The notes: generated by a model from the sequence alone, not told the origin. A stretch of 64,000 bases of DNA from a virus (IMGVR_UViG_3300042507_002545:33989-97988); one strand, 5' to 3'; counted from the stretch's first letter, positions 3,666 to 61,400 are shown. A program made the numbers and translations.

Positions 3666-4301
3666 TTATCCTTTATTTATTGTTACTTCATAATAACTTA
3701 CAACAGTTGAGTCTGCTACACTAACGTTCTGCATATAGAATATAAAGTACTGATCCTGAGCCCAGTTTATATTGTATGTGGAAACTGCTGTAGTAGAAAC
3801 AGAATCATCATCAAAACCACCCGTGTTATAAGGAAATACCTCAGTAGAGGTACTTGACTTTACAACAAGTGTTCTCGATAATTGCCCAAATGCAGCATTA
3901 GCACCTAAAGCAGCAATGGCAATACCACTACCACCTACAGCATCTGATGTATTTACACTTACGTATTGAGCTGTTATTCCAGCTGTACCTGTTTTTCTAC
4001 AACGAGTTCTTACAAAGATGCTATCTCCTGGAGCTACCGTATTAGCAGGTATGAGTACACTTGCAGATTTAGTTGCTGCAGTAACCCCTGTTACAGTAGT
4101 ACCATCAGCAGTTCTAATGAACTGCGGGTTAACACCTATTGCTAATGCAAAGTCTTCAGAAGGCATGGCATAAGATTGATACTTATCACCACGCTTTTGG
4201 AAAGATACATCAGCACCTAACACTACTAAGTCTTGTGGACTATCTAGTTTAGTTCTGATTAAGTTTTGTTTTTTTATGCCAAGCCAGTTTAGGATATCCA
4301 T
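3666..4301 (-). CDS. fibre/spike protein paralog
   Basis: same roughly 50-aa N-terminal module, different beta-rich C-terminus. Confidence 0.55.
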   Translation of the reverse strand: MDILNWLGIKKQNLIRTKLDSPQDLVVLGADVSFQKRGDKYQSYAMPSEDFALAIGVNPQFIRTADGTTVTGVTAATKSASVLIPANTVAPGDSIFVRTRCRKTGTAGITAQYVSVNTSDAVGGSGIAIAALGANAAFGQLSRTLVVKSSTSTEVFPYNTGGFDDDSVSTTAVSTYNINWAQDQYFIFYMQNVSVADSTVVSYYEVTINKG

Positions 4302-4313
4302 TGTGTTTTAATA

Positions 4314-5234
4314 TTAAGATGGGTAAACGCGTACTTCAATTGAACTTCCGTTCATTAAACTATCTGTTAAGGTACCAGATCCATTGTAAGTGTTAATATA
4401 AATTGCTCCAGAATCAAAGCTAGCTGTTGCAATTCCAAAAATGTTGTAATCCTTTGTAAAGAAAACCATAACTCTTGCATTATTTGAACCAATACCTATT
4501 AAAGTTGAATTACCTGCAAAATAATAATACCCTGTATTAAATCTTTGCCAGCTTCCACCAACACCTCCTAGAGTATTTTCTTTTACTGTAACCGTAGGAT
4601 TTCCTGATCCGGATTGTGATATTTTAGCAGAATAAACAAGATATGATCCTCCTGCACTACCTTGGGGAATACCTAAGTTTAAAACTTGAACAGGTGAACT
4701 TCCTGTAAGAGTTGCTGTAGCACTAGAACCTGCAGCCAATGTGGTAACAGTACCTATAGATAATGCATTGCTTGGGCCTGCAGGACCAGTTGGACCTTGT
4801 AATCCAGTAGCACCCGTAGCTCCTGTTGCACCTTGTGCTGCAAGTAATGCCCAGTTAGTAGGGTCAGCATTAGGAGGTGTGGCAGATGGACCTACAGGAT
4901 CTATACAGAACCATGATGCTCCTGCATAACCCACAGCGTCATCTACAACATAAGTTCCTGAAGCAGACCATGATCCTTGCCAATTTAATCCAGCAGGACC
5001 TACAGGACCTGGTGCACCAGCAGGACCGGTTGGACCAGCAACACCCGCTGGACCTTGAGGACCGGCAGGCAATGTAGCAGCAAAGTCGTTAATTTCCATT
5101 GCGTAGTTTTGATAAATATCACCACGCTTATTAGCACCTACTTTAGCACCAAAGATCATTAAATCTTTAGGGTTGTCAATAGAAGTACGTACAAATTTGT
5201 TTTTGGCTAGATAAAGCCAGTTTAGAATGTCCAT
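4314..5234 (-). CDS. collagen-like fibre protein
   Basis: shared N-terminal module plus Gly-X-Y repeats (GPQGPAGVAGPTGPAG) flanking a W/Y-rich WQGSW...Y...DAV...W module. Confidence 0.75.
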   Translation of the reverse strand: MDILNWLYLAKNKFVRTSIDNPKDLMIFGAKVGANKRGDIYQNYAMEINDFAATLPAGPQGPAGVAGPTGPAGAPGPVGPAGLNWQGSWSASGTYVVDDAVGYAGASWFCIDPVGPSATPPNADPTNWALLAAQGATGATGATGLQGPTGPAGPSNALSIGTVTTLAAGSSATATLTGSSPVQVLNLGIPQGSAGGSYLVYSAKISQSGSGNPTVTVKENTLGGVGGSWQRFNTGYYYFAGNSTLIGIGSNNARVMVFFTKDYNIFGIATASFDSGAIYINTYNGSGTLTDSLMNGSSIEVRVYPS

Positions 5235-5265
5235 GAGTTGAGTAGATTAATGGATTAATATATAC

Positions 5266-5297
5266 TATAATATAATAAATATCTGTAGAATAACCAA
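5266..5297 (-). promoter_or_regulatory. putative late promoter TTGG-N19-TATATTATA
   Basis: same geometry as the element at 47153..47184; lies upstream of the fibre genes. Confidence 0.45.
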
Positions 5298-5298
5298 A

Positions 5299-5523
5299 TT
5301 ATAATGATGTTATTGTTTCCCACGCTGTTCCATTATAAACACAAAGTTTATTAAGTGTAGTATCATAAACTACCCATCCTCCTTGAGGCGAAGGGATTGC
5401 GTTCTTTTGTACTGTGGTCATTTGTGGAAAAGGAAATGCTCTCATTGCTGGTCTACCATTAGGACCTGTTATTTCAAGACCTAAAGGACCATATGCATTA
5501 CCATTAGAATCAGTTACTTGCAT
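5299..5523 (-). CDS. small fibre-associated protein
   Basis: P.MTT.QKNAI.SP..G..VYDTTLNKLC.YNGTAW fibre repeat motif. Confidence 0.6.
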   Translation of the reverse strand: MQVTDSNGNAYGPLGLEITGPNGRPAMRAFPFPQMTTVQKNAIPSPQGGWVVYDTTLNKLCVYNGTAWETITSL

Positions 5524-5524
5524 A

Positions 5525-5827
5525 TTACACTTCTTGTATTAATACTACATACTGGGTACCAGGAGCTGTTGTTAATATATATAACTGATCACCTGCATCA
5601 AATGAATATAGATATGCATCTGTTAAAATATCTCCAGCCGCTAAGTTTACGGTATATACTGTAGTTGTTACCGGTCCAACTGCTTTTACTTTTCTTAATG
5701 TAACGGAATTAGCAGCTGGGTTACTCAATCTTATAGATATTGTATTTGCAGCATTTAAACCCCCAGGTCTAGTATAAATAAGATTACTTCCTGCAGGTAA
5801 TGACCCTTCTAATGATATTAGTCCCAT
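5525..5827 (-). CDS. hypothetical virion protein
   Basis: start re-assigned to MGLISLEG (ATG 5827). Confidence 0.55.
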   Translation of the reverse strand: MGLISLEGSLPAGSNLIYTRPGGLNAANTISIRLSNPAANSVTLRKVKAVGPVTTTVYTVNLAAGDILTDAYLYSFDAGDQLYILTTAPGTQYVVLIQEV

Positions 5828-5919
5828 AGTGTAAAGATAATACAAATATAAAAAAATTTCATATAATGTGCTGATTATTAAAATATTTTGCTTAAACTTG
5901 TATAAGATATACACATCTT

Positions 5920-6921
5920 ATGAATAAGATAACCGCTACTGGCAAACTCGCTAAACAGTATCTTAAGAAGTATCCTAGTCTTCCCATCCTTACAATTGCT
6001 AAACTTATGTACGCTGAAAATGATTTGCACTTTAATAGTGTAGATCATGCACGTTCATTACTTAAGCGTCACTCTGGACTAGGTGGTAAAGAAACCAGAA
6101 AGAACGTAGATCCAGAATTACAAAGACCTATAACATATAACTATGCTCCATTTAATGACATACCAAAATCATATAAGTCTGGACCTAATGACTTTGAATT
6201 GCCAAGTGATGCTAATCACATTCTTGCTCTTTCTGATGTTCACTTTCCTTATCACGATGAAGAAGCTCTTGGTGCTGCTATACAATACGGCATTGATCAA
6301 AAGATTAATACGGTTATTCTCAACGGTGATATTTTAGACTTCTACCAGTTGTCACGGTTTGACAAGGACCCTTCTAAACCTAAGATGCAAGTAGAACTTG
6401 AACAAGGTAGATGGTTTATGAAAGCACTACGCACAGCATTCCCTAAAGCGAGAATCTATTACAAGATTGGTAACCACGAAGATAGACTTGAAAAGTGGTT
6501 AAAGATTAAGGCGCCAGAATGGATTGGTATGGAGGAGTTTGAGTTAAAGATGTTACTTCGTTTTGGAGAAAACCAAATACAGCTTATCGATTCAAATGCT
6601 ACAATAAAAGCTGGTAATCTTAACATTATTCACGGTCATGAATATTTAGGTGGAGGTACTATAAATCCAGCAAGAAATTTGTATCTTAAAGCTAAGGCCA
6701 GTACTATTTGCGGACACTTTCATAGAAAATCAGAGTTTGTTACTCGCGATATCAACAACAATATCCAAGGTGCTTGGACTACAGGTTGTTTATGTGAACT
6801 ATACCCAGAGTACATGAAAGGACACAGCGATTGGGTACATGGTTTTGCGGTTATTAAGATAGAGAAGGATGGCACCTTTTCAGTAGATAACAAAATGATT
6901 ATTGACGGAGTAGTATCATAA
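5920..6921 (+). CDS. calcineurin-like metallophosphoesterase
   Basis: motifs SDVH, NGDILD, GNHE, HGHE, GHFH. Confidence 0.85.
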   Translation: MNKITATGKLAKQYLKKYPSLPILTIAKLMYAENDLHFNSVDHARSLLKRHSGLGGKETRKNVDPELQRPITYNYAPFNDIPKSYKSGPNDFELPSDANHILALSDVHFPYHDEEALGAAIQYGIDQKINTVILNGDILDFYQLSRFDKDPSKPKMQVELEQGRWFMKALRTAFPKARIYYKIGNHEDRLEKWLKIKAPEWIGMEEFELKMLLRFGENQIQLIDSNATIKAGNLNIIHGHEYLGGGTINPARNLYLKAKASTICGHFHRKSEFVTRDINNNIQGAWTTGCLCELYPEYMKGHSDWVHGFAVIKIEKDGTFSVDNKMIIDGVVS

Positions 6922-6923
6922 CT

Positions 6924-7145
6924 ATGGCAACAACTATTAGAGCTGGAATTTATATAGACCCACTCAGTGAGGAAGAGTCTACCCCTGAGATCTATATTGA
7001 TCACAGCATGATCCAGATATATAGTCAGGAGGATATCCTTGTTGCCCAAATTAGTTATGAAGAACTCCGCGGTATTTTAGCCATCATGGCGGCGGAACAA
7101 GAAAAGACTCACCTGCGTATTCAGGCTATTGGTCGGAACAACTAG
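6924..7145 (+). CDS. hypothetical protein
   Basis: 73-aa ORF directly after the phosphoesterase. Confidence 0.55.
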   Translation: MATTIRAGIYIDPLSEEESTPEIYIDHSMIQIYSQEDILVAQISYEELRGILAIMAAEQEKTHLRIQAIGRNN

Positions 7146-8120
7146 TCTTGTAACAAATTTAGCGTAAAATTGTTACCACACTAAAGTATGTTTTAGCAGT
7201 CATTAACCCCAGTTTTCTGGATAATGTATAGTATACCATACTATAATGTGGTTTATAAGAAACAAAAAACCTCAGTTTTATACCCTGTAAGGGACATTAT
7301 CATGTATAGAGAGTATACTCCGTACCTCTCCGGGTACGTTTTATAGTATTGATGTCAGGATAAACCTGGCACCATTGATATGAGATAGATGTTATAAACC
7401 ACATCTGTCACAAATATGTTAAACTTTTGTGACAAGCTTGATGGGTACTGGAGGGGTACTTGGGGGAAAGTATAGTAAACTTTTGCGACAGCTATAGTGG
7501 AAAATAATCACCAGAATCAGGCTTTTAGTGGAAAATAATCCCCAACTCCCTTGCGCTAATCCGCCATTACTGGAAAATTTTAGGAGTATTGGCGAACTAT
7601 AGAGTGCCAAACTCTGTAACAAAACATGGACAAACTCGGAAGTTTACCGAGTTACCCCCTATAATTTTGCATGAATTTTTCCAGATTTTGCATGCAGATA
7701 CATATAGTATTGCCACATGAGCCCATATTTATATGTAGGAGCATATAGGGAGAATGTCCAGTTTTTTGCGCAATAAACTTGACACCTTTGGTTCTCCTAC
7801 ATATACCCCCCTAGGGAAGTAGACAATCAACATACCCCCGGTAGTAAGGTTAGGTGGGGACACCCCCGGGAGGATGGTGTAGGGAATTTTTTATGGGGGT
7901 AGGGGATTTATAATGTGGGAGATGATGTGAGGGGTATACAACAAATCAACCCCCGGCTTTAAACTTTTTAGGGGGTACCCCCCATGAAATTTGAAACATT
8001 TCATTTAAAAGTTGAAATCCAAAGAAAACATTTTGCTATGTAGAAAATGTTTATACGTCATATAACTATGACATGCTTGATTTGAGTTGCACAACAAAGA
8101 CTTGAGTTGTTGTGTTGTGC
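7146..8120. repeat. non-coding array of many different imperfect palindromes and G/C tracts
   Basis: e.g. TATAGTAT-ACC-ATACTATA 7227-7245, TGTCACAAA-N11-TTTGTGACA 7406-7434, AACTCGG-N7-CCGAGTT 7633-7653, 30-nt dyad 7755-7784, GGGGGTACCCCC 7971-7982. Confidence 0.75.
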
Positions 8121-8148
8121 CACCCGACCCCGACCACCACCCCTAGAT

Positions 8149-8190
8149 ATGTTGCAAGCAACATCATTGATACAACATATCATTCATAAT
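8149..8190 (+). promoter_or_regulatory. early promoter candidate 1
   Basis: ATGTTGC-AA-GCAACAT dyad followed by ATACAACATATC.TTCATAATC. Confidence 0.55.
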
Positions 8191-8199
8191 CTTAAGATA

Positions 8200-8403
8200 A
8201 TGAATAACTTTTTAAACTCGCTAGTAGGTCATACTGACCTATACCAAGCTAAAAAGCAGGTGATTCGTGAAATCATTGCTTTCACCAAGTTTCCCAAATC
8301 ACGCACAAGCCGTGAATTTCTTTGGGGCAAAGACATTCAAGAGCTTGCGGCAATGCACCGTGAGCTATTGACATACCAAACGGTGCAATTGGAAATCGCT
8401 TAG
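8200..8403 (+). CDS. early hypothetical protein
   Basis: start at MNNFLNS, downstream of the promoter motif. Confidence 0.65.
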   Translation: MNNFLNSLVGHTDLYQAKKQVIREIIAFTKFPKSRTSREFLWGKDIQELAAMHRELLTYQTVQLEIA

Positions 8404-8416
8404 GCGATTTCTTTTT
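8392..8416 (+). terminator. intrinsic terminator
   Basis: GAAATCGC-TTAG-GCGATTTC-TTTTT; the stop codon sits in the loop. Confidence 0.8.
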
Positions 8417-8453
8417 GCTTTGCAATTATTAATACAACATATCTTTCATAATC
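8415..8453 (+). promoter_or_regulatory. early promoter candidate 2
   Basis: TTGC-TTT-GCAA-N6-ATACAACATATCTTTCATAATC. Confidence 0.6.
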
Positions 8454-8459
8454 ATAATT

Positions 8460-8642
8460 ATGAAAAAGTTCATGTTAATCATTACAATTATCGCATGGCT
8501 AGACAGCCTTGCGCTAATCTTCATTACTAACACTTTGCCGCATATTAGCAGTAAACCATTCGTGAATGGCTTCCTGATATTCTGCGCAGGATTCATCTCG
8601 TACTTGATATACTATCAATTACGCGATATGAGAAAGGCTTAG
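8460..8642 (+). CDS. small two-TM membrane protein
   Basis: two hydrophobic stretches in 60 aa. Confidence 0.65.
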   Translation: MKKFMLIITIIAWLDSLALIFITNTLPHISSKPFVNGFLIFCAGFISYLIYYQLRDMRKA

Positions 8643-8660
8643 GCCTTTCTCTTTTCTTTT
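8630..8660 (+). terminator. intrinsic terminator
   Basis: GAGAAAGGC-TTAG-GCCTTTCTC-TTTT. Confidence 0.8.
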
Positions 8661-8688
8661 GCTGCGCAATAGGTAATACACCATATAC
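8659..8688 (+). promoter_or_regulatory. early promoter candidate 3
   Basis: TTGC-TGC-GCAA-N6-ATACACCATAT. Confidence 0.6.
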
Positions 8689-8722
8689 TAATAAAATCAG
8701 TTTCACTTAATTTAAATTTATC

Positions 8723-9094
8723 ATGGTAGAACCAATCAAAATTCAAATCTCGTTATCAGATTTATTAGACGTCATCAACGCAAGCAGCAATCCTATAGTT
8801 GCAGCTGCTGTTCTTGATGGCTCTTATGTAAGCCCACTTCAAGATAAAGATCTTGTAGGTCGCTTTCATAAGAACTTTAACATCAAGAAAGATGACGACA
8901 CGCGTGACCATTATTTGCTCTTGTTCCAAGGCTACAATAAATGGTCTGATGAGGTGACCTTTAAGAAAGATCACCCCAACGCGTGGTCCGGCAACAACAC
9001 CATGTCTTTAGCAGAATGGCGTGCTGCCTATGACTTTGAGCCTTCTACACTTGGCAAGGCTGATACCAAGGCATCAACCGTTGGCCAATTGTAA
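8723..9094 (+). CDS. early hypothetical protein
   Basis: 123-aa ORF inside a promoter/terminator cassette. Confidence 0.7.
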   Translation: MVEPIKIQISLSDLLDVINASSNPIVAAAVLDGSYVSPLQDKDLVGRFHKNFNIKKDDDTRDHYLLLFQGYNKWSDEVTFKKDHPNAWSGNNTMSLAEWRAAYDFEPSTLGKADTKASTVGQL

Positions 9095-9101
9095 GGCTCA
9101 T

Positions 9102-9129
9102 GAAACCCCTTCGGGGGTTTCTTTTTTTT
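9102..9129 (+). terminator. intrinsic terminator (UUCG loop)
   Basis: GAAACCCC-TTCG-GGGGTTTC followed by a T tract. Confidence 0.9.
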
Positions 9130-9157
9130 GCTTCGCAAATAGATAATACTACATATC
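9127..9157 (+). promoter_or_regulatory. early promoter candidate 4
   Basis: TTTGC-TTC-GCAAA then ATACTACATATC. Confidence 0.6.
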
Positions 9158-9181
9158 CTTGAAAATCAATTATCAAATTTT

Positions 9182-9592
9182 ATGAAAAATTTAACAATCA
9201 AATTTCAGCGTTCTTACCGCAAAGCAGGTAAAACGCCCGGCGCCCCTTCTCGCCTAATCTTCGTATATCTTGTAACTGGTACTGCAGAGCAGTTAACCGA
9301 GTTCCGCGATATCCAAAGCGCAAATCTGCGTGAAGATGAAAAGGGAAACCCTTTGTTCTTCACTAGCAGATATGCTGGCGAGACAGCGATGCTCACGCTT
9401 AACCATGCTGGTACTGACTACTATGTAGACAATACCGAGATGGATAAGCAGGCATCACTGGTTGAACAGTTTGGCGGTAATCTTGGTCAGGCAATTGCTA
9501 TGCAGATTGCTGCCCAAGCCACCGGCAAAGTTCAACAGGTCGCCCCCGCTGCGGTACCCGCTGACAAGACACAAGGTCTTGGCACCGTGTAA
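9182..9592 (+). CDS. early hypothetical protein, paralog A
   Basis: similar over its full length to 10030..10422. Confidence 0.8.
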   Translation: MKNLTIKFQRSYRKAGKTPGAPSRLIFVYLVTGTAEQLTEFRDIQSANLREDEKGNPLFFTSRYAGETAMLTLNHAGTDYYVDNTEMDKQASLVEQFGGNLGQAIAMQIAAQATGKVQQVAPAAVPADKTQGLGTV

Positions 9593-9603
9593 CTACGCGG
9601 TAC

Positions 9604-9633
9604 ACCCTACTCTTCGGAGTAGGGTTTTTTTTT
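9604..9633 (+). terminator. intrinsic terminator (UUCG loop)
   Basis: ACCCTACTC-TTCG-GAGTAGGGT followed by a T tract. Confidence 0.9.
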
Positions 9634-9839
9634 GCTCTGCAAGTTTTTATATACAAGTCTTGTCCAGTGTTACTTGTACAATAGTAATCGTATATAATTA
9701 TATCCGTAGGAAGCCGTAAATGTATACACGTATATAGTTATTATTGGATTCCTATGTATATACCTCTCCCGGGACACAGACACACTTATGCACTGATACA
9801 CAAGACATTAGCGTATTTGTATACTTGTATTCCTATTAA

Positions 9840-9955
9840 CGCTCGCGCTTCGCGCTCGCTTTTTAATGCTTCGCATTTATTTTAGCTCGCTTCGCTCGCT
9901 TTATTCGCTACGCGAATTTTTTAGATACTACTCATCTTCGCTGCGCTCGATGAGT
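9840..9955 (-). repeat. cluster of five GC-GNA-GC DNA mini-hairpins
   Basis: minus strand reads GCGAAGC x3, GCGTAGC and GCGCAGC. Confidence 0.7.
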
Positions 9956-10029
9956 TCGCCGAGTACTGAGTACAGGTGAACCGGGTAAGCGTGAATAGTA
10001 ATCAATTTATAATCAATTAATTAGGGCTT

Positions 10030-10422
10030 ATGAGCACACTACAATTGACATTTGCGCGCCAGTATCGCAAGAAAACTACTGGCAAGTTGGTATTCGTGTA
10101 TAACGTGAAGGGCACTGCCGCACAGTTAGATGAGTACCGTGATGCACAGGGAAGTTTCCTTGTGGAAGATGAGAAAGGACAACCATTGTTCTTTACATCT
10201 CGCTATGTGGGTGAGGTTTGCCCGCTTGTTGCTAACCATAACGGGGACGGATTCTATGCCGACACCACGGAGATGGACAAGCAAGCTGCGATGGTGCAGC
10301 AGTTTGGTGGTAATTTGGGCCAAGCGTTGGCTGCACAGATTGCTGCAAGCGTTGCGGGTAAAGGTGCTGCTACCTCACAAGTGGCAAGTGCACCAGTGTC
10401 TAAGGGATTAGGCACAGTTTAA
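10030..10422 (+). CDS. early hypothetical protein, paralog B
   Basis: EDEKG.PLFFTSRY.GE and QFGGNLGQA shared with 9182..9592. Confidence 0.8.
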   Translation: MSTLQLTFARQYRKKTTGKLVFVYNVKGTAAQLDEYRDAQGSFLVEDEKGQPLFFTSRYVGEVCPLVANHNGDGFYADTTEMDKQAAMVQQFGGNLGQALAAQIAASVAGKGAATSQVASAPVSKGLGTV

Positions 10423-10724
10423 TGCTAACTAATTGAGTATCAGTGTGTTTGTGAGTTAATAACACACTGATGCTCTTTCTTATTAGTATTGCAATGTACA
10501 ATGAAGTGCGACAAATGAACGCGCACTAGATAGCTAAGGGATTGTAGTACGAGTACTCTTCCCTGTATTAATGCATCATAACTTACTTCACAAGGGTAAG
10601 CAGTTGTAATAGAATTCCTAATGGAGAACAAGTTTAGATACTTGACGTCTAGTTATCCTACATGGTATTACAACTGAATGCAGAGTGGTACAATAGAATG
10701 TTTAACCCCTTAATCTTTATTACT

Positions 10725-10955
10725 ATGGAGTTTGAATACTCAAGTGTTACAAGTGCAGGTTATATATCGGCCTCTGAAGTTAGTTCTTCCGATGTACTTC
10801 CCGCTAAAGAGTTGCTTATGTCAAACTGCAGGCCTTATAAGTTTTACCAAGTGGTTGAGCATATGGCTAATGGTTCCGTTGCTTGTATAGACCAGGATTG
10901 TAATCCTGTATCTTTATCTATAAATGATGTAGCAATTGTTAATTGGTATGAGTAA
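10725..10955 (+). CDS. hypothetical protein
   Basis: start re-assigned to MEFEY. Confidence 0.5.
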   Translation: MEFEYSSVTSAGYISASEVSSSDVLPAKELLMSNCRPYKFYQVVEHMANGSVACIDQDCNPVSLSINDVAIVNWYE

Positions 10956-11136
10956 GTTGATTTTGTTTTTCTACTTGTTAACCGGGAAGGTTGAGAAGGT
11001 AGACGGATTGTATACGATACATACTACTGAGAGTTCTGTTATTGAGTACGCTTGTGAGGGTGAAGTATTAGAGTATATAGAGACAGGTGTCTTTAGATAT
11101 GATGATAACCTCGCAAAGCCTGGTGAGTTGGAATAG
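10948..11136 (+). CDS. hypothetical protein
   Basis: MSKLILFF...; overlaps the upstream stop. Confidence 0.5.
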   Translation: MSKLILFFYLLTGKVEKVDGLYTIHTTESSVIEYACEGEVLEYIETGVFRYDDNLAKPGELE

Positions 11137-11194
11137 GTAGGAAGCCGGGGTTTTTGATGATGATTTTCCCCGGCGTTCCTATATTTTTGAAAAA

Positions 11195-11590
11195 ATGTTT
11201 AACTTAATACTTAATACCGTGGAAAAGAAAGGTTTTATTATGGGCTTGGTTATAGCCTCATGTGTATGGATTACTACTATTGTATTGATTCTACGCACAC
11301 AAGATAACCCGATAATCATAGAGAAATGTGACTTTACTGAAGATGACATTATAGACACAGAGTTTGAACAACTGATGATTAACACTCGTGTTAATGCTTA
11401 TGCGCATGGTTATTATACCTGTTTACGGGATACAAGACCTGATATACATATGGCATATATGTCTTGTATTGTGCAATTAGAAACAGTACAGGGTGATGAA
11501 GCATTTAACGCTATTGTTGATGCTGAATGTTCAAATCGTGGTCTGAGTGTTGAAGACAAGGAATATTTACGTACTCTATTATTAGATTAA
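11195..11590 (+). CDS. membrane-anchored hypothetical protein
   Basis: N-terminal TM segment. Confidence 0.6.
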   Translation: MFNLILNTVEKKGFIMGLVIASCVWITTIVLILRTQDNPIIIEKCDFTEDDIIDTEFEQLMINTRVNAYAHGYYTCLRDTRPDIHMAYMSCIVQLETVQGDEAFNAIVDAECSNRGLSVEDKEYLRTLLLD

Positions 11591-11591
11591 A

Positions 11592-11810
11592 ATGACAAGA
11601 GAACTTGCTAGAATTAAGACCATACAGAAGTTTACTAACTTACTTGATGGCACGTTGTTACCAGGATATAGTGTGGCTCAAGTAATTAGTTACTATGAGT
11701 CACAGCTTCTTGGTGTCCCTACTGATAATATTAGTAGGGTAGATGGTATCACCGCCAACTTCATGGAGGATTATATAAATAATCTCGATGATGGTGATCA
11801 AATATTGTAA
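11592..11810 (+). CDS. hypothetical protein
   Basis: 72-aa ORF in the operon. Confidence 0.55.
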   Translation: MTRELARIKTIQKFTNLLDGTLLPGYSVAQVISYYESQLLGVPTDNISRVDGITANFMEDYINNLDDGDQIL

Positions 11811-12430
11811 AGCGAAGAATGCATACAGCACTATAAACAAACTATGGTAAAGTTAAAACGCATTCTGTATCTTTACAATCTATTATGTGTTTAGTTGTAG
11901 GTAGCAATACCATTTAAAGATGTGAATACTATATTTAGAGCGGGTGCTTAACACATCCCAAGTATAGTTACAACTAAATGCATAATTATTTATAGCCCAT
12001 AAGGGCAAATTTTAAAATTATATACCTTACATTATTCAATTGAAGTTAAATGGTGACGCCTATAATCTATTAGGCTATGTGTATTTACCCGAAGGTCAGT
12101 CTACCGGGATATTGCAGGAATGTAATAGTTACACAAATGATTGGTAAAAGAACTGTGACAGGTTCTAACCAAAGGTCGTTTGAAAGTTAAGGGTGCATGT
12201 CAAAGCACCGCAAGCTTGTTCTTATGTTAGTGAAGGATAGTTCAGCACTATAAAAACTACAATTATAAGGTTAAACAACTATTCTGTTTAACATAAGAGC
12301 ATTTAGCACATGAAAGAATGAATCAGCACTGTAAAAAAATTACAATGCACGAGACAATAAAAGTCTCAAGGGAAAGGTAGGCCACAACAAGTTAGTTGTT
12401 AGGCTCTCTTCATTCTGTTGTATGTGCAAA
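11804..12430 (+). ncRNA. structured non-coding RNA region with three copies of an AGAAT/AGGAT...CAGCAC...ATTCTGT motif
   Basis: copies at 11804-11879, 12218-12300 and 12306-12427 with covarying inner and outer stems; further long stems between them; no ORF. Confidence 0.65.
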
Positions 12431-12495
12431 AGCCTAGTAGTGATACTCGTGGCCTGCCAATCTTAAATTATTGTTTAACCAAAACCCTTTACGCA

Positions 12496-13884
12496 ATGGA
12501 TAATTTTACCAACGCAATGTTTTCTAATGATAGTCTTACCAATAACGGCGCAGTTACTCATAGTACTGCAGGTAATTACTGTCTTGACCTGTTCTTTTTA
12601 GCAGGTGCGAGCCGTTTTATGTCTGAAGAAGATATCTTAAAAGCATTTATCAAGGCTTATCGTGAAGATAAGTTAACTGCTATTAAGATTCTATTTTGGG
12701 CACGCGATGCACGTGGTGGTGCAGGGGAGAAGAGATTCTTCCAAGTGATAATGAGAAATCTATTAGTAGCAGACCCTGAAGTATATGAGCAAATTGCTAT
12801 ACATATACCAACGTTTGGCTATTGGAAAGATATATTCATCATTGAAAGACCAACTGATAATACCCTTAATTGGTTGAGTATTCAACTGAAAGAGAATGAG
12901 AATGCTAATCTATTGGCTAAATGGTTCCCTCGCAAGGGTGAATGGTTTGTGGCAATGCATAAGTATCTTGGTGTATCAGCAGGTACATTCCGTAGAAGAC
13001 TTACTTCTATGTCTAATACCGTAGAGCAAAAGATGTGTGCTAATGATTGGGAATCTATTTCTTATTCACAAGTACCTTCTGTTGCAGGTAAGAGATATGC
13101 CCAGTCCTTTACTAAACACGATTATGTAAGATACGCCTCTTATATTAGCGATGTTATGGAAGGTAAGGAGAAGATTAATGCTTCAGTATTATTCCCAAGT
13201 GACCTTGTAGCAAAAGTATTTACAGAGCATGATACCTTTGCATACAATGCTATGTGGAAGAATCTTCCTAACTATATGGAAGGTTGTACTGAAAGAATCT
13301 TACCTGTTTGCGATGTTAGTGGTAGTATGACGGGACAACCTATGGAAGTATCTATAGGATTGGGCCTCTATATCAGTGAGCGCAATGAAGGTCCTTTCAA
13401 GGATTTAGTGTTGACATTTAGTGAATCACCGCAATTTCATAAGATAAGCGGTATGACATTAAGTGAGAAAGCACATAATCTTAGACAGGCTGATTGGGGT
13501 ATGAATACGGATTTAACCAAAACATTCACAGTGTTACTAGATCGTGCTGTTGCAGGTAAAGTAGCACAGGAAGATATGCCTACCAAGTTACTGATTATTA
13601 GTGACATGGAGTTTGACCAAGCCTGTGGTAAGCGTACTAACTTTGATACTATCAAGGATATGTATGCACACTGCGGTTATGAGATGCCGGGTATAATCTT
13701 TTGGAATGTTAATGGTCGCCTCGGTAATGTACCTGTGAAGGCTAACACACCAAACACTGCCCTTGTTAGCGGGTATAGTCCAAGTATTATTACAAATATC
13801 TTGGGCGGTAAGGATTTGAGTCCTATAAGTGTGATGATGGAAACTATTGGCAATGTGAGATACAACTGTATCAAACTTGACTAA
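12496..13884 (+). CDS. TROVE/Ro60-like protein with C-terminal vWA domain (DUF2828-like)
   Basis: T.NGA..HST..CLDLFF, FWARDARGGAGE, AKWFPR, MIDAS DVSGSM, ISDMEFD, IFWNV; start at MDNFT. Confidence 0.85.
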   Translation: MDNFTNAMFSNDSLTNNGAVTHSTAGNYCLDLFFLAGASRFMSEEDILKAFIKAYREDKLTAIKILFWARDARGGAGEKRFFQVIMRNLLVADPEVYEQIAIHIPTFGYWKDIFIIERPTDNTLNWLSIQLKENENANLLAKWFPRKGEWFVAMHKYLGVSAGTFRRRLTSMSNTVEQKMCANDWESISYSQVPSVAGKRYAQSFTKHDYVRYASYISDVMEGKEKINASVLFPSDLVAKVFTEHDTFAYNAMWKNLPNYMEGCTERILPVCDVSGSMTGQPMEVSIGLGLYISERNEGPFKDLVLTFSESPQFHKISGMTLSEKAHNLRQADWGMNTDLTKTFTVLLDRAVAGKVAQEDMPTKLLIISDMEFDQACGKRTNFDTIKDMYAHCGYEMPGIIFWNVNGRLGNVPVKANTPNTALVSGYSPSIITNILGGKDLSPISVMMETIGNVRYNCIKLD

Positions 13885-15715: not shown

Positions 15716-16060
15716 ATGGCTAAAGTTACAAAAGAGCGTGTTGCTAATATATGCAAACGTGTGAATGGGGGTATGAAACCCGGGTATGCTACGCATGCTG
15801 AAGGATTAGGTGGTGGGTACCTAGTTGCGTTAAAAGATTCAGGTATTATCTATAAAGATAATGAAGGAAATTGGAAAGGTATGGTGAAGATCCATGCAAC
15901 AAGATTTGATGAGTTTGTCAAACTACGTCAACGCTATGATAAACAAGTGAAAGAAGGTGTTATCAGCGTTAAGTATATTAACAAACGCCCTAATGATACC
16001 CCTGTGGTAGAAAAAGTTAGTTTATTTAGAAGAATTTGGAATAGTATCTTAAAGAAATGA
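15716..16060 (+). CDS. hypothetical protein
   Basis: 114-aa ORF. Confidence 0.6.
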   Translation: MAKVTKERVANICKRVNGGMKPGYATHAEGLGGGYLVALKDSGIIYKDNEGNWKGMVKIHATRFDEFVKLRQRYDKQVKEGVISVKYINKRPNDTPVVEKVSLFRRIWNSILKK

Positions 16061-16242
16061 TAATGAGTGAGCAAGATAAAAGACCCGTGTTTATGGGCAA
16101 TTTTGAACGTTTTAAGAAAGAAACGCAAGTAAAACATGAAGATGTTATGAGACAAGCAAAGAAACTAAATGAAAAAATGACGCTTGCATTAGCTATGGCA
16201 ACAGTTGCTATTATAACAGCTATTGCAGCTTTAGCTATATAA
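16057..16242 (+). CDS. small protein with C-terminal TM helix
   Basis: hydrophobic C-terminus. Confidence 0.55.
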   Translation: MIMSEQDKRPVFMGNFERFKKETQVKHEDVMRQAKKLNEKMTLALAMATVAIITAIAALAI

Positions 16243-55408: not shown

Positions 55409-58400
55409 TTAGCATTTATTGAGTTCTTGTATTTTATTTAAGATATCTTCACGAGTTACTCGTATGAATTTTTTAGGTGCCACAACCTCATAGTTCTTGT
55501 TCTTGTACCCAAATTCTTCGTAAAGCCTCTTAGACAAATATACGAAAGTTTTAGTGGCCTTTGCCTTCTTTTGATTTACATTTTCACCATTAACATCAGC
55601 ACCAATCATGTATTGCCCATATCCAGCAGCATTCCAGAAAATTTTATTATCGTAATCTTTAGCGGCTTTCTTAAGTGCTTGAATACTATTCTCAATAGCT
55701 TTTACATTTAAATCATAGTTATCATCATTCATTTGCTGACTTACAACATCTTGAAAGCCTAGCTTACTTGTTAAGCCAAATGAGTTTGTATGCTCTTTTG
55801 AAAGTGCAAATACTGAGTCATTTGTTTCTAAAGGTTTAGCATTTGGATTAGCTGCCCCATTGTATACAAACAAGTAATTTTTTCTATCTTTAAGAAGCTG
55901 ATCTATAGCTAATTTAAGATCTACTCCTTCAGGTGCTTTTTGTACAATGAAGCTTGGACTTTGGTAGTTATCTCTAAATGTTTGCACTGTACCAAATGAT
56001 CCAGTAAGATCTGCCGCAGGATTTTTAGAAGCTTTCCATAAAGGTTGATCTAGTGTGTAGTTTCTAACCTTATATCTACTAGCAGTATTCTTATATGAAT
56101 TAACTGTACTAAACTTATTAAAGTAACTGTTAACAAGATTCCAAGTCATTAACTTATTGCTTTCCATGTAGTTAAGCATGCTTTCTAAGATTGGAGTTAA
56201 TCTTGTATCCGGCATAATTTGTCCTATACCATATTCCCCTTTGGAGTTAAATCCTGTAGTAAACATCGTATATATAGGTAAGTTGCTAAAGAACTTTGAA
56301 ATCTCCTGAGCCTCACTCGAGGTCATGTTAGCAGTTTCAATTAAGTTATATGGGTCCATTAGCTCAACTAAGTCTTCGTGGAATCTATTTATTCTATCTG
56401 GGTCTAACTTGCTAGACTTAAATTTAATAACACGTTCTTTAGTTTTTGCCTCATCAGCAGTTAGGAAGTCCAATACTTTATACTTCTGTACTAGGTCTGG
56501 GTACTTCTCTTTGATATCAAGAAGTCTTTTTGCATATGATTTAGTAGGACTCTTTAAAATATAGTATTGGTTAAATGTATTATCCAAGGCCATATCTCTT
56601 AGAGTATTCTCATATGCAAAAGTTGTAGCTTCTTTTTCTATATCAGCCTCTGCAAAGTCTTCATACTTAGCAGCTATAAAATCTTTTTTATACTGGATGT
56701 AGTCATCTCGCTTGATGATTTCAGATACTGGTATTGCATTTCTTAAATATTCACGCTCCATTACATATCTACCATATTCACGTATGTTTTGGAACATACT
56801 TGATCTAATTACACCAAATGAAAATGGTAGTTCTGGATTAGTGATATTAATGTTTTCTTTACCGTTATTAGATTGTAAGTTTTCAAACTCCTCTACCAAT
56901 TTTTGTTTATCAAAATACATCATCGGTATAGTTGTCTTGTCTTTTAACTTAACGTTTTTAACAAATACCGATACAGGAGACTTAGTTGTTGGCTTAAGTT
57001 TTACCGACTTAGATGCTACTTGCAAACTCTTATAATACTTAATAGAGTCAAGGTCCAAATTACGCATGTAGTTCTGGAACATAAACATTACTAAGTCATT
57101 TCTAAAGTTAGAAATGAACGTCTCTTGATCACCAAATGTATCAGAAACCGTATCCTTAAAGTCTTTTCTTCCTAACTTTTTAAGTAAATAATCATTTACC
57201 AACTTAGAGTCTCTAATAGTAAATAGATTCTTATAAATATCAGCCATGAACTCTGATATACCAAAGCTTGATATAGATGACTCATCTAAGATTTTATTGA
57301 TAACATCATCACCTAGTCTTTCATCTTCACGTAACTGGTCAGCTTGATATTGTCTTAAGTTAGTTTCAAATAAACTTGCTGCAACTTGGGTATCTAAATT
57401 AGTAGTACGCTTTACTGCAGTAATTACTTTAGACATATCTTCTATATCTAAGAAGTGTAGTAACAATCCCAGCTGCTCAGTGCTTTCAAAATCAAGTTCG
57501 TCTTGTAAATGATCTTCAAAATATTGCTGATTGAAGATTTTATCTTTTAATGATCCTGCAATATCCGTTGCTGCATTTTTAACACTCTTTGTATAAAGCA
57601 TTACCTCACCATCATCATTAGTATCTGTGTAAGGCATCATTTGTGAAAAGTTCATAAGAACTTTTCTACGTGCTTCACTTCTAAAGAAGTTAGGGTTTGA
57701 TAACTCAATACCTAGAGGACCTGCATAAGCAGACTTAGCTTTCTTAACCTCGTTAATGTATTGACGAATAATAGGTTGTGATACAAAGTAAGCAGCTTGT
57801 CTTATAGGTACACCAGCTTGAACCATTAATAATAATGATGGCGCAACAAAGTTATTACCTTGAATATCAAAGATCCACGGATCTTTAGCGATATCTACCC
57901 AACCATTGATAAGTTGAGAAATAACATCTGACACTTTGTTTACACCATCTGCATCATATAAGTTACTTAATGATATAGCAGTACCTTTTGGAGTTAGTAA
58001 TGTATTATGTGGCAAATAAATAGTTTGCTCTTTTTTAATTGGATCACCTTTATCGTCTTCTCCAATTGTATATTCAGGTTGTAAATAAGCACCAACCGTA
58101 TTAAAGATTACACTATAAGTATTGTCTACAGCACCTTGTCCAAGAGTTCTCTTACCAATGCTATTAGAACCATGCTTATAGATATTATATTCTATTTCAA
58201 ATATTCTAGTACCTTTAATTTTATCACCTCTTTCACTAAATACATTTTGTAAAGAGTCGTATGGTCTTACTTTAGAAGCAAGCTCTTGTGCAATAGGTTG
58301 TACAATATCAGTTGCGTTAGGTGTAATAAGATCTACATAGTTACTCTCTAAAGAAAGTATATCTATAATATCTGTAATAACATCATTTTGAAAATCTTCT

Positions 58401-61400
58401 GCTATAGATACAGAACCATCTTCATTTTTGCTAAGCTTATACATTAAAGTAGTAAGCTTATCAATGTCAAAGTCACCTCCTGATTTAGCTACAATTTCTG
58501 CTGGAAGTACAATTTGGTTACTACCTTCTGGTAAGAACTCATATACTTCCATAAACTCCATGGAGTTTAGACCTTGCACAGGAATACGCACACCAGCTAA
58601 AGAAACAAGCTTGCGATTATCATTTTCATTTAGCCAAGTCTCATCTTTAAGAAGTTGGTTAAGAGCTTGAAGACGAGTAAGTGATTCCCCTTTTCTTGCG
58701 GCTTCTTCAATCATCTCAGTAACTTTTGGCAAGTCTAAAAGCTTTTTATACTCTCCCTGAATACCAATCTTAATCTTCATAGCCATTGTCTTACCATCTT
58801 TTTTTCTATAGAACGGTAAATCATTGGTGCCTAAAACTTCCAGGCGCTCTTTAGAGTCTTTGTTAGCATTGAAGAAATCACGACTAGTATAACCAGCACC
58901 TGATACTTGAACAAGAGCCTCTCCTGTAACCTTTTGTTTAATAAGTTTTTTATTAATAATAGATACAAGAACCTTCTCAATCTCAGCCGCCGCTAGAGAT
59001 ACATCAAGAGAAGATTTTAATTTACCTTCTTTATTAAGCTTGACAAAATCTAAGTGGTGCTCAGCAAGTTCACGCTTAGTTAATTGACTTTCTATATAAG
59101 CAAATAACTTATCTAAAGGTCCTGTTGGTTTACCATTTTCATATGTCCAACCTATTTCATCTAATAACTCTTGTTTCTTCTGAGCCATAAGATTTTCAAG
59201 GTTACCTTGGAAACGTTTAATTAAACTATAGTTTTTAGATTCTCTACGTTTAGCTGTGTCATCTCCAATTTCATTCCACCTTGCCATACGTGCTTCTTTA
59301 GGCAAGTTAGGTTCAAAGTCTGTAGGTACACCATTTTCCATTAACCCAGACTCAATAAGTTTACGTAACTGAGTAGGGAATGTGGTTTTACTCTTATACT
59401 TAGGTGCAATCTCTAACTGCTTTTTAAAGTATTTTAAGAATATATCGTTAGGAGTAAACATGTACCCTTCTTCTGTGAATGCTAGCTCACGGTTAGCAGC
59501 ATCTTCTGGATTTTTATAAAATTTATCTGGCTTGCCATTAGGTGTAATAGTAGCAATCTTAGATCCTGATCCAAATAAAGCATAGTCTACCTTTTGCTCA
59601 ACCATCTTATTATGAAGCTTTTCAAGATCGGAGCCTTCAATAGTAGATGGAATTAATGGTACCAATGAGAATTTATGGAATGCTGTAAGTGGCAAACCAT
59701 TTGTTGCAAGTGGTCCCCAGTATTGCATCTTAAGTACAGGGAAGAATTCTTTAATCTTAGTCTGATCAATGTTCTTCTTAGCCAATACATCTCTATATAA
59801 TAACTCTTGTGTATCTGACCATGCACCCATCATAATGCTAAGTGCTTTATAACCATCAAAAGTTATCCAGCCTTGAGCATCCCCTTCTTTCATTTCACGG
59901 TATGGCTTAGCACGTTCTTTAACAATTTTATCAACGTCCTCGTCCGTTAATTTACCATTCTTATAGCCAGGTGAATTTTTGATAGAAGTTCTAATGTCAT
60001 CTTCAATGGCAGCGTAGTATAATGATTTTGTTTCAACATCTTCTAATACAGCACTTCTAAATTGTTCACTATAAGATTTTTCTACACTTTGCCCCGTATA
60101 CCAACTACTTGAACTATAGCTAGCTTTACCAGGAGCAAATACAACACTATTTAAATAACGTAACATTGCAGGATCTGTTCTTGGAATAATACCACCGCTA
60201 TTAATACCGGCGTTACGTTTTTGGAACTCTTCCTTAGCCATGTTATACAATGCTGGATCACCATGATAAAGCAATACGGTTTCTACATTGTGTATAAAGC
60301 TGTTGTAAACATGTGTTTTAATTGCAATATTTCTGGTTTCATTTCTACTTAGCTTCTTAGCTTTTGTATCATCACCTGCATAGATCTCTTGAATTTTATC
60401 ATGCATGGTGTTATCTATATACTCAGCTTCTACTAGTTGTTCAGTAAACTCATTTATCTTGTTTGCAAAATATACTTTTATAACATCATCTGCTATTCTC
60501 TTTCTAAGATCACTTGACTCCGGTAAATCCAAATAATCACGTAATCTACCGCCGTACTCAGCAGGAATATTCATTAACTCTTCTTGAAGTTCAGGTCTAA
60601 TCATGTCTGAGAATATCACAAACTTTTGACCCTCTACCCCATACGTAGATTTACCTACTGGTATCATACGCTCAATAGCATTAGCTGGTAAAGCCTTTAC
60701 TCTATTAATACGATCAAGCTCGGCCTCTAAATAACCAAGTAAGATATTAAAAGCTGCAGCTTCCCCATTGGTACCAAGTGCAAACTCTCTAGGGTTTACA
60801 TAATACTTTCTATTAGATAAGTGATATACAAGTATTGTAGATTTATCTGCAGGAGTAGTTCCCATAGGTAAACCGTGGATAACACTCACGTGAAAATCTG
60901 TAAGGCGCTTTGTAAATTCATCTGAGTCTGATGCTGCAATACCATTATAGGCTTCACCATTAACAGTAAATGAAACACCTGCTAGATTATTAATATCTAT
61001 AGTAATCTTTTCATTAGACCCAACCTCTTCTTTAATAGAACGCTTAGGACCACTAGGCTTTGACATGTCAAAAAGCTCGTGGATTGTAACAAGACGTTTT
61101 CTCTTAGGATCTGGATTATTACTTACAAATGGATTACGTAGTGCAGATAAATGATTCATCTCAGGCTTTGCAGTAAGAGTATTAAAATCAGGTGCTTCCT
61201 GTAATTCTCTAATCTGTTGAGTAATGGTATTGTTTTCCATAAACTCATACTGAGTATCACCTGCTGCATTTAATACCATGAAGTCTGAATAGTCATCAGT
61301 ATATGTAGCTTGAATCTTTTGTAAAGAGTTGTAGAATCCACGCAAGCCTTTTAAAACTTCACCATTGTCCCTAATCTTTTTAGTAGGGTTAATCAAGTCA

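Follow-up and report, generated by a model that had tools for sequence, protein, structure and literature searches.

What does a gene-free stretch crowded with palindromes do where the early genes of a bacteriophage begin? The question arises from the window studied here, a 64,000-nt stretch of DNA comprising bases 33989-97988 of a 97,988-nt IMG/VR virus record whose completeness is estimated at 82%. Tail-fibre and other late genes occupy its minus strand up to 5914, a rightward module containing the helicase, primase, and DNA polymerase genes spans 5920-43688, and two giant minus-strand ORFs lie beyond that module. This is the arrangement of a crAss-like phage, and one of the giant ORFs encodes GGDFDIDKL, a motif of the DFDID type described in a preprint for gp66 of phi14:2, the crAss-type virion RNA polymerase (bioRxiv 10.1101/2020.03.07.982082). 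This ORF (55409-64000, minus strand) overruns the contig end and carries DFDID at residue 1843 of the open frame; the adjoining ORF of 2,739 aa has no PHROG match.

Genomic Setting of the Gap

The gap stands at the start of the rightward early module, adjoining the divergent strand switch (5914/5920) and ∼2 kb before the cumulative GC-skew minimum, skew in this genome being confounded with gene orientation. Its left neighbor is a 73-aa ORF (6924-7145) downstream of a metallophosphoesterase gene and its right neighbor is the first small early gene (ATG at 8200).

7146-8199, no strand: ORF-free gap of 1,054 nt, with the conserved element at 7146 to ∼7990

The gap is noncoding. Its longest ORF is at most 67 aa and all frames are broken by indels among relatives, in agreement with the initial annotation, which had described a noncoding span just ahead of small early-type genes. 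A 40-aa frame (7224-7346), open at 38 aa or more in 10 of 16 sequences, was rejected as a small protein gene, with variability of 0.281, 0.194, and 0.207 at codon positions 1, 2, and 3, and thus highest at position 1. A blastn search of 6900-8300 against 50,697 phage records returned no match, and the small proteins neighboring the gap matched no Pfam or PHROG family.

Dyad Density

All 13 dyads listed in the initial annotation were found in place, together with the duplicated AGTGGAAAATAATC, and the 30-nt dyad at 7755-7784 pairs at 13 of 15 positions as claimed. The span 7146-7860, proposed as the array, is indeed denser in dyads than shuffled sequence. Against 300 dinucleotide shuffles it contains 22 perfect dyads (arm at least 5, loop at most 12) versus 9.9±3.2 (z 3.8, p 0.003), 6 with an arm of at least 6 versus 2.9±1.6 (p 0.08), and 2 with an arm of at least 8 versus 0.2 (p 0.013). 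The entire gap (7146-8199) holds 36 dyads versus 14.8±3.8, a count reached by none of the 300 shuffles, and the density is 2.2-2.4 times that of shuffles. Among 973 windows of 715 nt taken across the genome the mean is 13.0±3.9, placing the 22 dyads of 7146-7860 ∼2.3 standard deviations above it; the highest dyad density of the 97,988-nt genome falls in the gap, peaking at ∼7600-8600 and so partly outside 7146-7860. The dyad excess is therefore real and moderate, about two-fold, and reaches past the right boundary at 7860.

The homologous elements of relatives G002, G003, and G004 are also enriched (22 vs. 12.2, 22 vs. 10.4, and 21 vs. 11.8; p at most 0.015). A general trait of crAss-type early gaps was considered and rejected, the excess being absent at two of three comparison gaps: the gap upstream of crAss001 gp104 (10 vs. 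10.4±3.1 shuffled) and the phi14:2 g004-g005 gap (9 vs. 12.1±3.3), the third being the crAss001 gp95-gp96 gap with 25 dyads versus 15.8.

Motif Families within the Gap

The dyads had been described as nearly all different. This does not hold: most derive from some six families of short motifs, each present in direct and inverted copies. The following features were recognized, without strand unless one is given.

7146-7191: 46-nt head, containing the 27-nt palindrome GTAACAA-N13-TTGTTAC (7150-7176)
7150, 7170 (minus), 7616: GTAACAA
7246-7258, plus: copy of ATGTGGTTTATAA (GTGG-WWW-ATAA family)
7248, 7392 (minus), 7497, 7528, 7570, 7684 (minus): GTGG-WWW-ATAA family, six copies or variants
7387-7406: 20-nt imperfect palindrome AGATGT-N8-ACATCT, its loop carrying the GTGG-WWW-ATAA-family motif ATGTGGTTTATAA
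7406 (minus), 7426, 7482: TTTG[TC]GACA family, forming the dyad 7406-7434 and a direct copy at 7482-7490
7443-7465: GGGTACT tandem repeat of ∼11 nt, two copies in the window
7497, 7528, 7570 (within 7495-7580), plus: direct, iteron-like copies of [GC]TGGAAAAT, spaced 31 and 42 nt
7666-7694, plus: two direct copies of TTTGCATG, 21 nt apart
7755-7784: 30-nt imperfect palindrome, 13/15 pairs
7800-7989: G+C-rich core (G+C-rich part from ∼7780), with TACCCC/GGGGTA and C5/G5 sites ∼30 nt apart
7990-8079: A+T-rich tract, GC 23-28%, adjoining the core with GC 43-57%

An inverted copy of [GC]TGGAAAAT lies at 7674-7684, and the two sub-forms of the GTGG-WWW-ATAA family are linked by the 20-mer loops of relatives L105 and L106. 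In the core, C-runs come first and G-runs after, and GGGGGTACCCCCC (7971-7983) terminates it. Copy number and orientation of the motifs differ between close relatives: L011 has four copies of TTTG[TC]GACA, and the GGGTACT tandem has four to five copies in G002 and none in G003, G004, or G001. The families are concentrated in the gap, which is ∼1% of the sequence and contains 11 of the 39 C5/G5 runs of the genome (0.42 expected), 8 of 28 TACCCC copies, 3 of 6 copies of [GC]TGGAAAAT, 3 of 4 of TTTG[TC]GACA, and both copies of TGTGGTTTATAA, all figures that are biased upward because the families were defined on this very gap.

Within a family, direct copies lie roughly a whole number of helical turns apart, with separations of 11, 21, 29-31, and 42 nt and TACCCC/C5 sites 29-30 nt apart. 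Indels of at least 6 nt fall within a quarter turn of whole turns in 13 of 18 cases, a count worked by hand, and helical phasing of indel lengths is only suggestive.

Conservation and the Head Module

The element at 7146 to ∼7990 recurs in 8 viral contigs (probed with its first 41 nt), 12 metagenome contigs (probed with a 29-nt core), and 1 contig of a metagenome-assembled genome (MAG; probed with the 27-nt palindrome), some of the 12 metagenome contigs representing the same phages as the viral contigs. All five complete relatives (113-120 kb) hold it. It is under purifying selection, since its aligned columns are 76-83% identical to the window and thus exceed the fourfold sites of the adjacent phosphoesterase gene (60-65%). 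Its distribution is lineage-specific: searches of five more distant relatives, only one of them at least 90% complete, did not recover it, and the corresponding junction of L012 measures just 32 nt and lacks it. Both flanks are mosaic among relatives, the genes to the right of the gap differ, and insertions occur within the element, comprising whole genes in G005 and long stretches in L105 and L106.

The 46-nt head is almost invariant across all relatives and has a recombination boundary at each side. At least five unrelated left flanks join it at the same nucleotide (±3), and the sequence 3' of it falls into four classes, one of which is a 188-aa ORF in G005; in G002 and G003 a minus-strand ORF begins at the head boundary. 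The arms of the head resemble outward-facing divergent copies of TAnnTTTG, which we take to be the Bacteroidota -7 box: minus-strand TAAATTTG matches it and plus-strand TAAAATTG is one base off. A putative divergent promoter/operator is a reasonable reading of the head. Beyond it, scans for host-type promoters were not informative and were set aside, TAnnTTTG occurring 106 times genome-wide versus ∼124 expected (two in the gap) and sigma-70-like sites 31 times in 5000-13000 versus 27.6±4.9 shuffled.

The best-conserved palindrome, the 27-mer of the head, was searched in 185,579 species genomes and matched none of their bacterial chromosomes, the sole match being a phage-like contig within a MAG. 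That 10.8-kb contig (L113), from a MAG labelled Chthoniobacter, bears this lineage's element along with tail-fibre genes; most likely it belongs to a phage and entered the bacterial MAG through binning, and it is not host evidence.

Recognition as Duplex DNA

Between relatives, the 20-mer (7387-7406) and the 30-mer (7755-7784) occur as exact reverse complements ("flip/flop") with their loop and mismatch positions kept. The 30-mer is flipped in G002, G004, G001, and L102 with both mismatches retained, and all four orientation combinations of the two palindromes are seen. In some genomes the 13-nt motif at 7246 is inverted relative to 7392-7404; in others the two form a direct repeat. Because flipping leaves the double strand unchanged but would turn a transcript into its complement, we read these sites as double-stranded DNA, and their conservation through flips points to recognition in that form.

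In eight sequences (113 pairs in 18 dyads), 85.9% of cells are paired versus 85.0±0.5 in shuffles, and pairs changed on both sides number 9 versus 7.9±1.5, reached by 174 of 500 shuffles, with no compensatory excess; the covariation score of the dyads equals that of a slid control, and RNAalifold on the first 200 nt of 10 sequences gave a covariation term of 0 with 1 of 28 pairs compensated, all of these being tests on 8-10 close relatives with little power. Many dyads that are perfect in the window show one-sided mismatches in relatives. The initial annotation had regarded the dyads as sites for dimeric proteins in preference to terminators; they do behave as protein sites on duplex DNA and not as terminators or RNA stems, as the lack of compensatory evolution and the loops kept through flips indicate. 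Its observation that they have no U-tails applies to 17 of the 18 tabulated dyads but not to 7321-7338, which is followed by TTTTAT and is the only place in the gap having intrinsic-terminator form (a G+C-rich hairpin and a T-run).

These results also bear on whether an early long noncoding RNA or long 5' leader runs rightward from the head with the dyads as its hairpins, as in phi14:2, which we consider unlikely. The preprint on that phage, which is of the same kind as ours, reports that two long intergenic regions heading its rightward early module are transcribed above most genes and persist, and describes the g005-g006 region as an early "long non-coding RNA" that is abundant and has no assigned function (bioRxiv 10.1101/2020.03.07.982082). 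The parallel favors an RNA here, and so do the 188-aa ORF that follows the head in G005 as it would a promoter, folding z-scores of -2.4 to -3.4 in three of five 200-nt windows of 7146-7945, and the T-tail of 7321-7338. Neither strand stands out in the z-scores, however, and two of the windows (7446-7645 and 7746-7945) score close to zero; covariation is absent, and the flips that keep the duplex sequence would complement the RNA loop. A motif pairable over 133 nt in the window is moreover a direct repeat in most relatives. Rfam returned nothing, whether at the gathering score or at E≤5, and searches for tRNA and tmRNA genes in the region were negative; nothing supports an RNA structure for it. 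A tmRNA is predicted in one of the two phi14:2 regions and not in this gap, and the positionally analogous gap in phi14:2, long and gene-free as ours is, shares no sequence similarity with it and lacks the dyad excess (9 vs. 12.1±3.3). In phi14:2 itself (L091, NC_021806), ARAGORN places at 4031-4500 a tmRNA with the tag GSSVQKLAMVA*, in the g005-g006 intergenic region, where the feature table shows none.

A Candidate Cis-Acting Control Region

The gap is probably a cis-acting array, read as duplex DNA, of candidate sites for a few sequence-specific proteins. More specifically, an iteron-type origin of replication is the likeliest, though still tentative, identification. Under this model the array, at the head of the rightward early/replication module, would be loaded on its repeats by initiator or accessory proteins, this loading would open the neighboring A+T-rich tract at 7990-8079, and the invariant palindromic head of 46 nt would act as a divergent promoter/operator. 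The layout is origin-like, a G+C-rich core (7780-7989) being followed by the A+T-rich tract, and the location by the strand divergence, close to the GC-skew minimum, likewise favors an origin. Iteron-type origins and control arrays, such as oriR/incA of plasmid P1 and ori of phage lambda, resemble the gap in having a repeated short motif, direct and inverted, at whole-turn spacing with an A+T-rich tract alongside; [GC]TGGAAAAT and the TACCCC/C5 sites each provide at least three helically phased copies of one short motif, the tract at 7990-8079 is an adjacent candidate for unwinding, and copy number varies between relatives of this phage. The gap differs from them in having about six interleaved families over 850 nt instead of one, and neither an initiator gene nor a DnaA-box cluster was found. 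RepL and ParB_N profiles had no match in the 82%-complete genome, and 1 of 30 near-matches to the DnaA-box consensus in the window falls in the gap. The negative searches in five more distant relatives and the short junction of L012 also count against an origin. An origin has been predicted at the start of the forward-strand module of the prototypic crAssphage (Carjivirus communis), according to a preprint, a placement like that of our gap but one that rests on an adjacent repL, for which no RepL match exists here (PMC10983915, preprint). An origin or packaging scaffold had been the fallback of the initial annotation, and the findings now favor it.

The close rival of the origin reading is a role in packaging. 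The element at 7146 to ∼7990 would then be a short direct terminal repeat (DTR) of a linear virion genome, present as a single collapsed copy in assemblies, with the head as the end or terminase recognition site and the repeated motifs as packaging or end-processing sites. We hold this to be somewhat less likely than an origin, and one region could serve in both ways. Discrete boundaries with unrelated flanks are what is observed: conservation starts at the same nucleotide (±3) beside at least five unrelated left flanks, four classes of sequence follow the head, and both flanks of the element are mosaic, all of which a terminal repeat would explain at least as well as an origin. The element is also noncoding and, over its ∼850 nt, immediately precedes the first early genes. 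In phage T7, a textbook precedent, short repeat arrays adjoin the terminal repeat. Further precedents are the short DTRs reported for crAss001 (PMC8042965), the clear DTRs of DAC15 and DAC17 (bioRxiv 10.1101/2020.03.04.977157), and, for crAss001, early genes at one end of the linear genome, among them that for a TROVE protein resembling the product of 12418-13884 in the window (PMC8375218). The ends of crAss001, DAC15, and T7 resemble the element as noncoding stretches of several hundred nucleotides that lie where modules meet, next to early genes, and combine short repeats and sharp boundaries with variable flanks. The gap upstream of the first early gene of crAss001 differs in lacking a dyad excess (10 vs. 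10.4±3.1), and DAC15 was not among the 25 matches listed for TROVE homologues. Counting against a terminal repeat, no end of the 12 head-bearing metagenome contigs coincides with the boundary (the closest contig begins 31 nt upstream of it), whole genes lie within the element in G005 and long insertions in L105 and L106, L012 has no such region at the junction, and DTRs are not universal in the group, since crAss002 packages by headful (PMC8042965).

Two further proposals give the palindromes a role toward the host or the phage polymerase. The initial annotation favored a decoy array, whose sites would mimic host operators or the targets of DNA-sensing defense and titrate the corresponding proteins early. 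Dense operator-sized sites just ahead of early genes, recognized as duplex DNA, would suit such a role, and the iteron arrays of plasmid P1 incA do titrate protein, yet the gap contains about six repeated families in place of some 20 unrelated operators, the head palindrome is missing from the bacterial chromosomes of the species collection, and the operator resemblances that had been named dissolve on inspection. The operator of HrcA (CIRCE) consists of two 9-nt half-sites in inverted repeat around a 9-nt spacer; the two halves here (7193-7201 and 7602-7610) are separated by ∼400 nt, and relatives do not conserve the first. RcnR/CsoR-type operators are dyads of TAC, a G/C tract, and GTA; a deletion has removed the dyad likened to them (7804-7821) from G003, G001, L097, and G005, and G002 and G004 have it in rearranged form. 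Titration of many host regulators or defense sensors thus seems highly improbable. We give equally little credence to hairpin or cruciform entry sites for an injected virion RNA polymerase, in which the palindromes, extruded when the DNA is supercoiled or single-stranded, would serve as structure-specific promoters. The virion-polymerase promoters of coliphage N4 are short hairpins of fixed geometry. Like N4, our phage has dyads directly upstream of early genes and a giant protein, here bearing the crAss-type DFDID motif, likened to the injected RNA polymerase, and flip/flop of two imperfect palindromes is the expected product of hairpin strand-switching. Unlike in N4, the geometry is heterogeneous with loops of 0-17 nt, compensatory changes do not preserve the stems, relatives carry many of the dyads in imperfect form, and the early genes immediately after the gap have a clear sequence motif of their own. 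The phi14:2 study reports that gp66 transcribes denatured DNA and describes early transcripts sharing no common sequence motif, which again would favor structure-specific entry (bioRxiv 10.1101/2020.03.07.982082). A joint proposal, in which the palindromes extrude in vivo and the array is a landing pad for an injected virion RNA polymerase preferring single strands, with flip/flop and the four orientation combinations as the trace of extrusion, is only slightly less improbable; in a variant, the array would soak up host DNA-structure sensors.

Early Genes beyond the Gap

The right end of the gap is marked by the first copy of a promoter-like motif.

8152 (first copy 8152-8192, plus), 8415, 8659, 9128: promoter-like motif, TTGC-N2-3-GCAA, then 6-7 nt, then ATAC-N-[AC]CATAT

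The four full copies (8152-9128) occur nowhere else in the genome, and a partial copy lies at 9632. Since each copy precedes a small gene ending in a strong terminator (8200-8403, 8460-8642, 8723-9094, and 9182-9592), the gap is predicted to be the head of an immediate-early block, and the motif is a candidate family of immediate-early promoters, possibly for the virion polymerase. The strong intrinsic terminators sit after the genes, at 8391-9625. The motif was not found in the loci of relatives that were scanned.

The block has several properties of its own. The small early genes of 8000-10000 have negative coding-strand GC skew, unlike the rest of the rightward module, and folding of the same span far exceeds that of shuffles, most of all for RNA of the minus strand (z down to -7.6). 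A gene-free gap of 437 nt that follows the fourth small gene holds, at 9604-9925, G+C-rich hairpins each with T-runs, which look like a terminator stack closing the immediate-early block. The ORFs at 9182-9592 and 10030-10422 are paralogues, matching the same L004 and L028 ORF with 33-44% identity. Further on, the gene at 12418-13884 encodes a DUF2828/DUF7788 protein (PHROG "RNA-binding protein"), and the early block of crAss001 has an annotated TROVE domain-containing protein. Two noncoding blocks upstream of the gene (11802-11888 and 12052-12209) are 80-90% conserved in relatives, at least as much as the gene itself; they could hold a partner RNA of the 12418-13884 protein, and an Rfam search of the upstream blocks within 11802-13884 gave nothing meaningful.

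On the left of the gap, the metallophosphoesterase gene and the 73-aa ORF (5920-7145) keep the same place in L008, L010, L011, L012, and L006, and are inverted inside the early module of the close relatives L004, L005, L007, L009, and L028 (equivalents ∼15895-16066); the inverted, displaced arrangement is apparently found in more distant relatives too. The pair forms a mobile cassette of 1.3 kb. Its use as a locus anchor in distant relatives was abandoned, the cassette lying elsewhere and inverted there, and a pile-up of contig ends after it was unconvincing, with 10 of 39 truncations within 600 nt downstream versus 7 of 37 upstream.

Implications for crAss-Like Phages

The crAss-like phages are very abundant and most members are uncultured. 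We know of no origin of replication or early-promoter logic defined for them, and to our knowledge few of them have had their genome ends mapped. If the region is an ordinary origin or terminal repeat, the finding amounts to routine annotation. A landing-pad array, if true, would account for the sequence-independent early promoters of crAss-like phages that have not been found. Beside the gap lies an early-promoter-like motif family, of a kind that the phi14:2 work did not find for its phage (bioRxiv 10.1101/2020.03.07.982082). The element itself offers, in an environmental lineage, a compact, conserved, and well-delimited candidate for an origin, promoter, or genome-end function.
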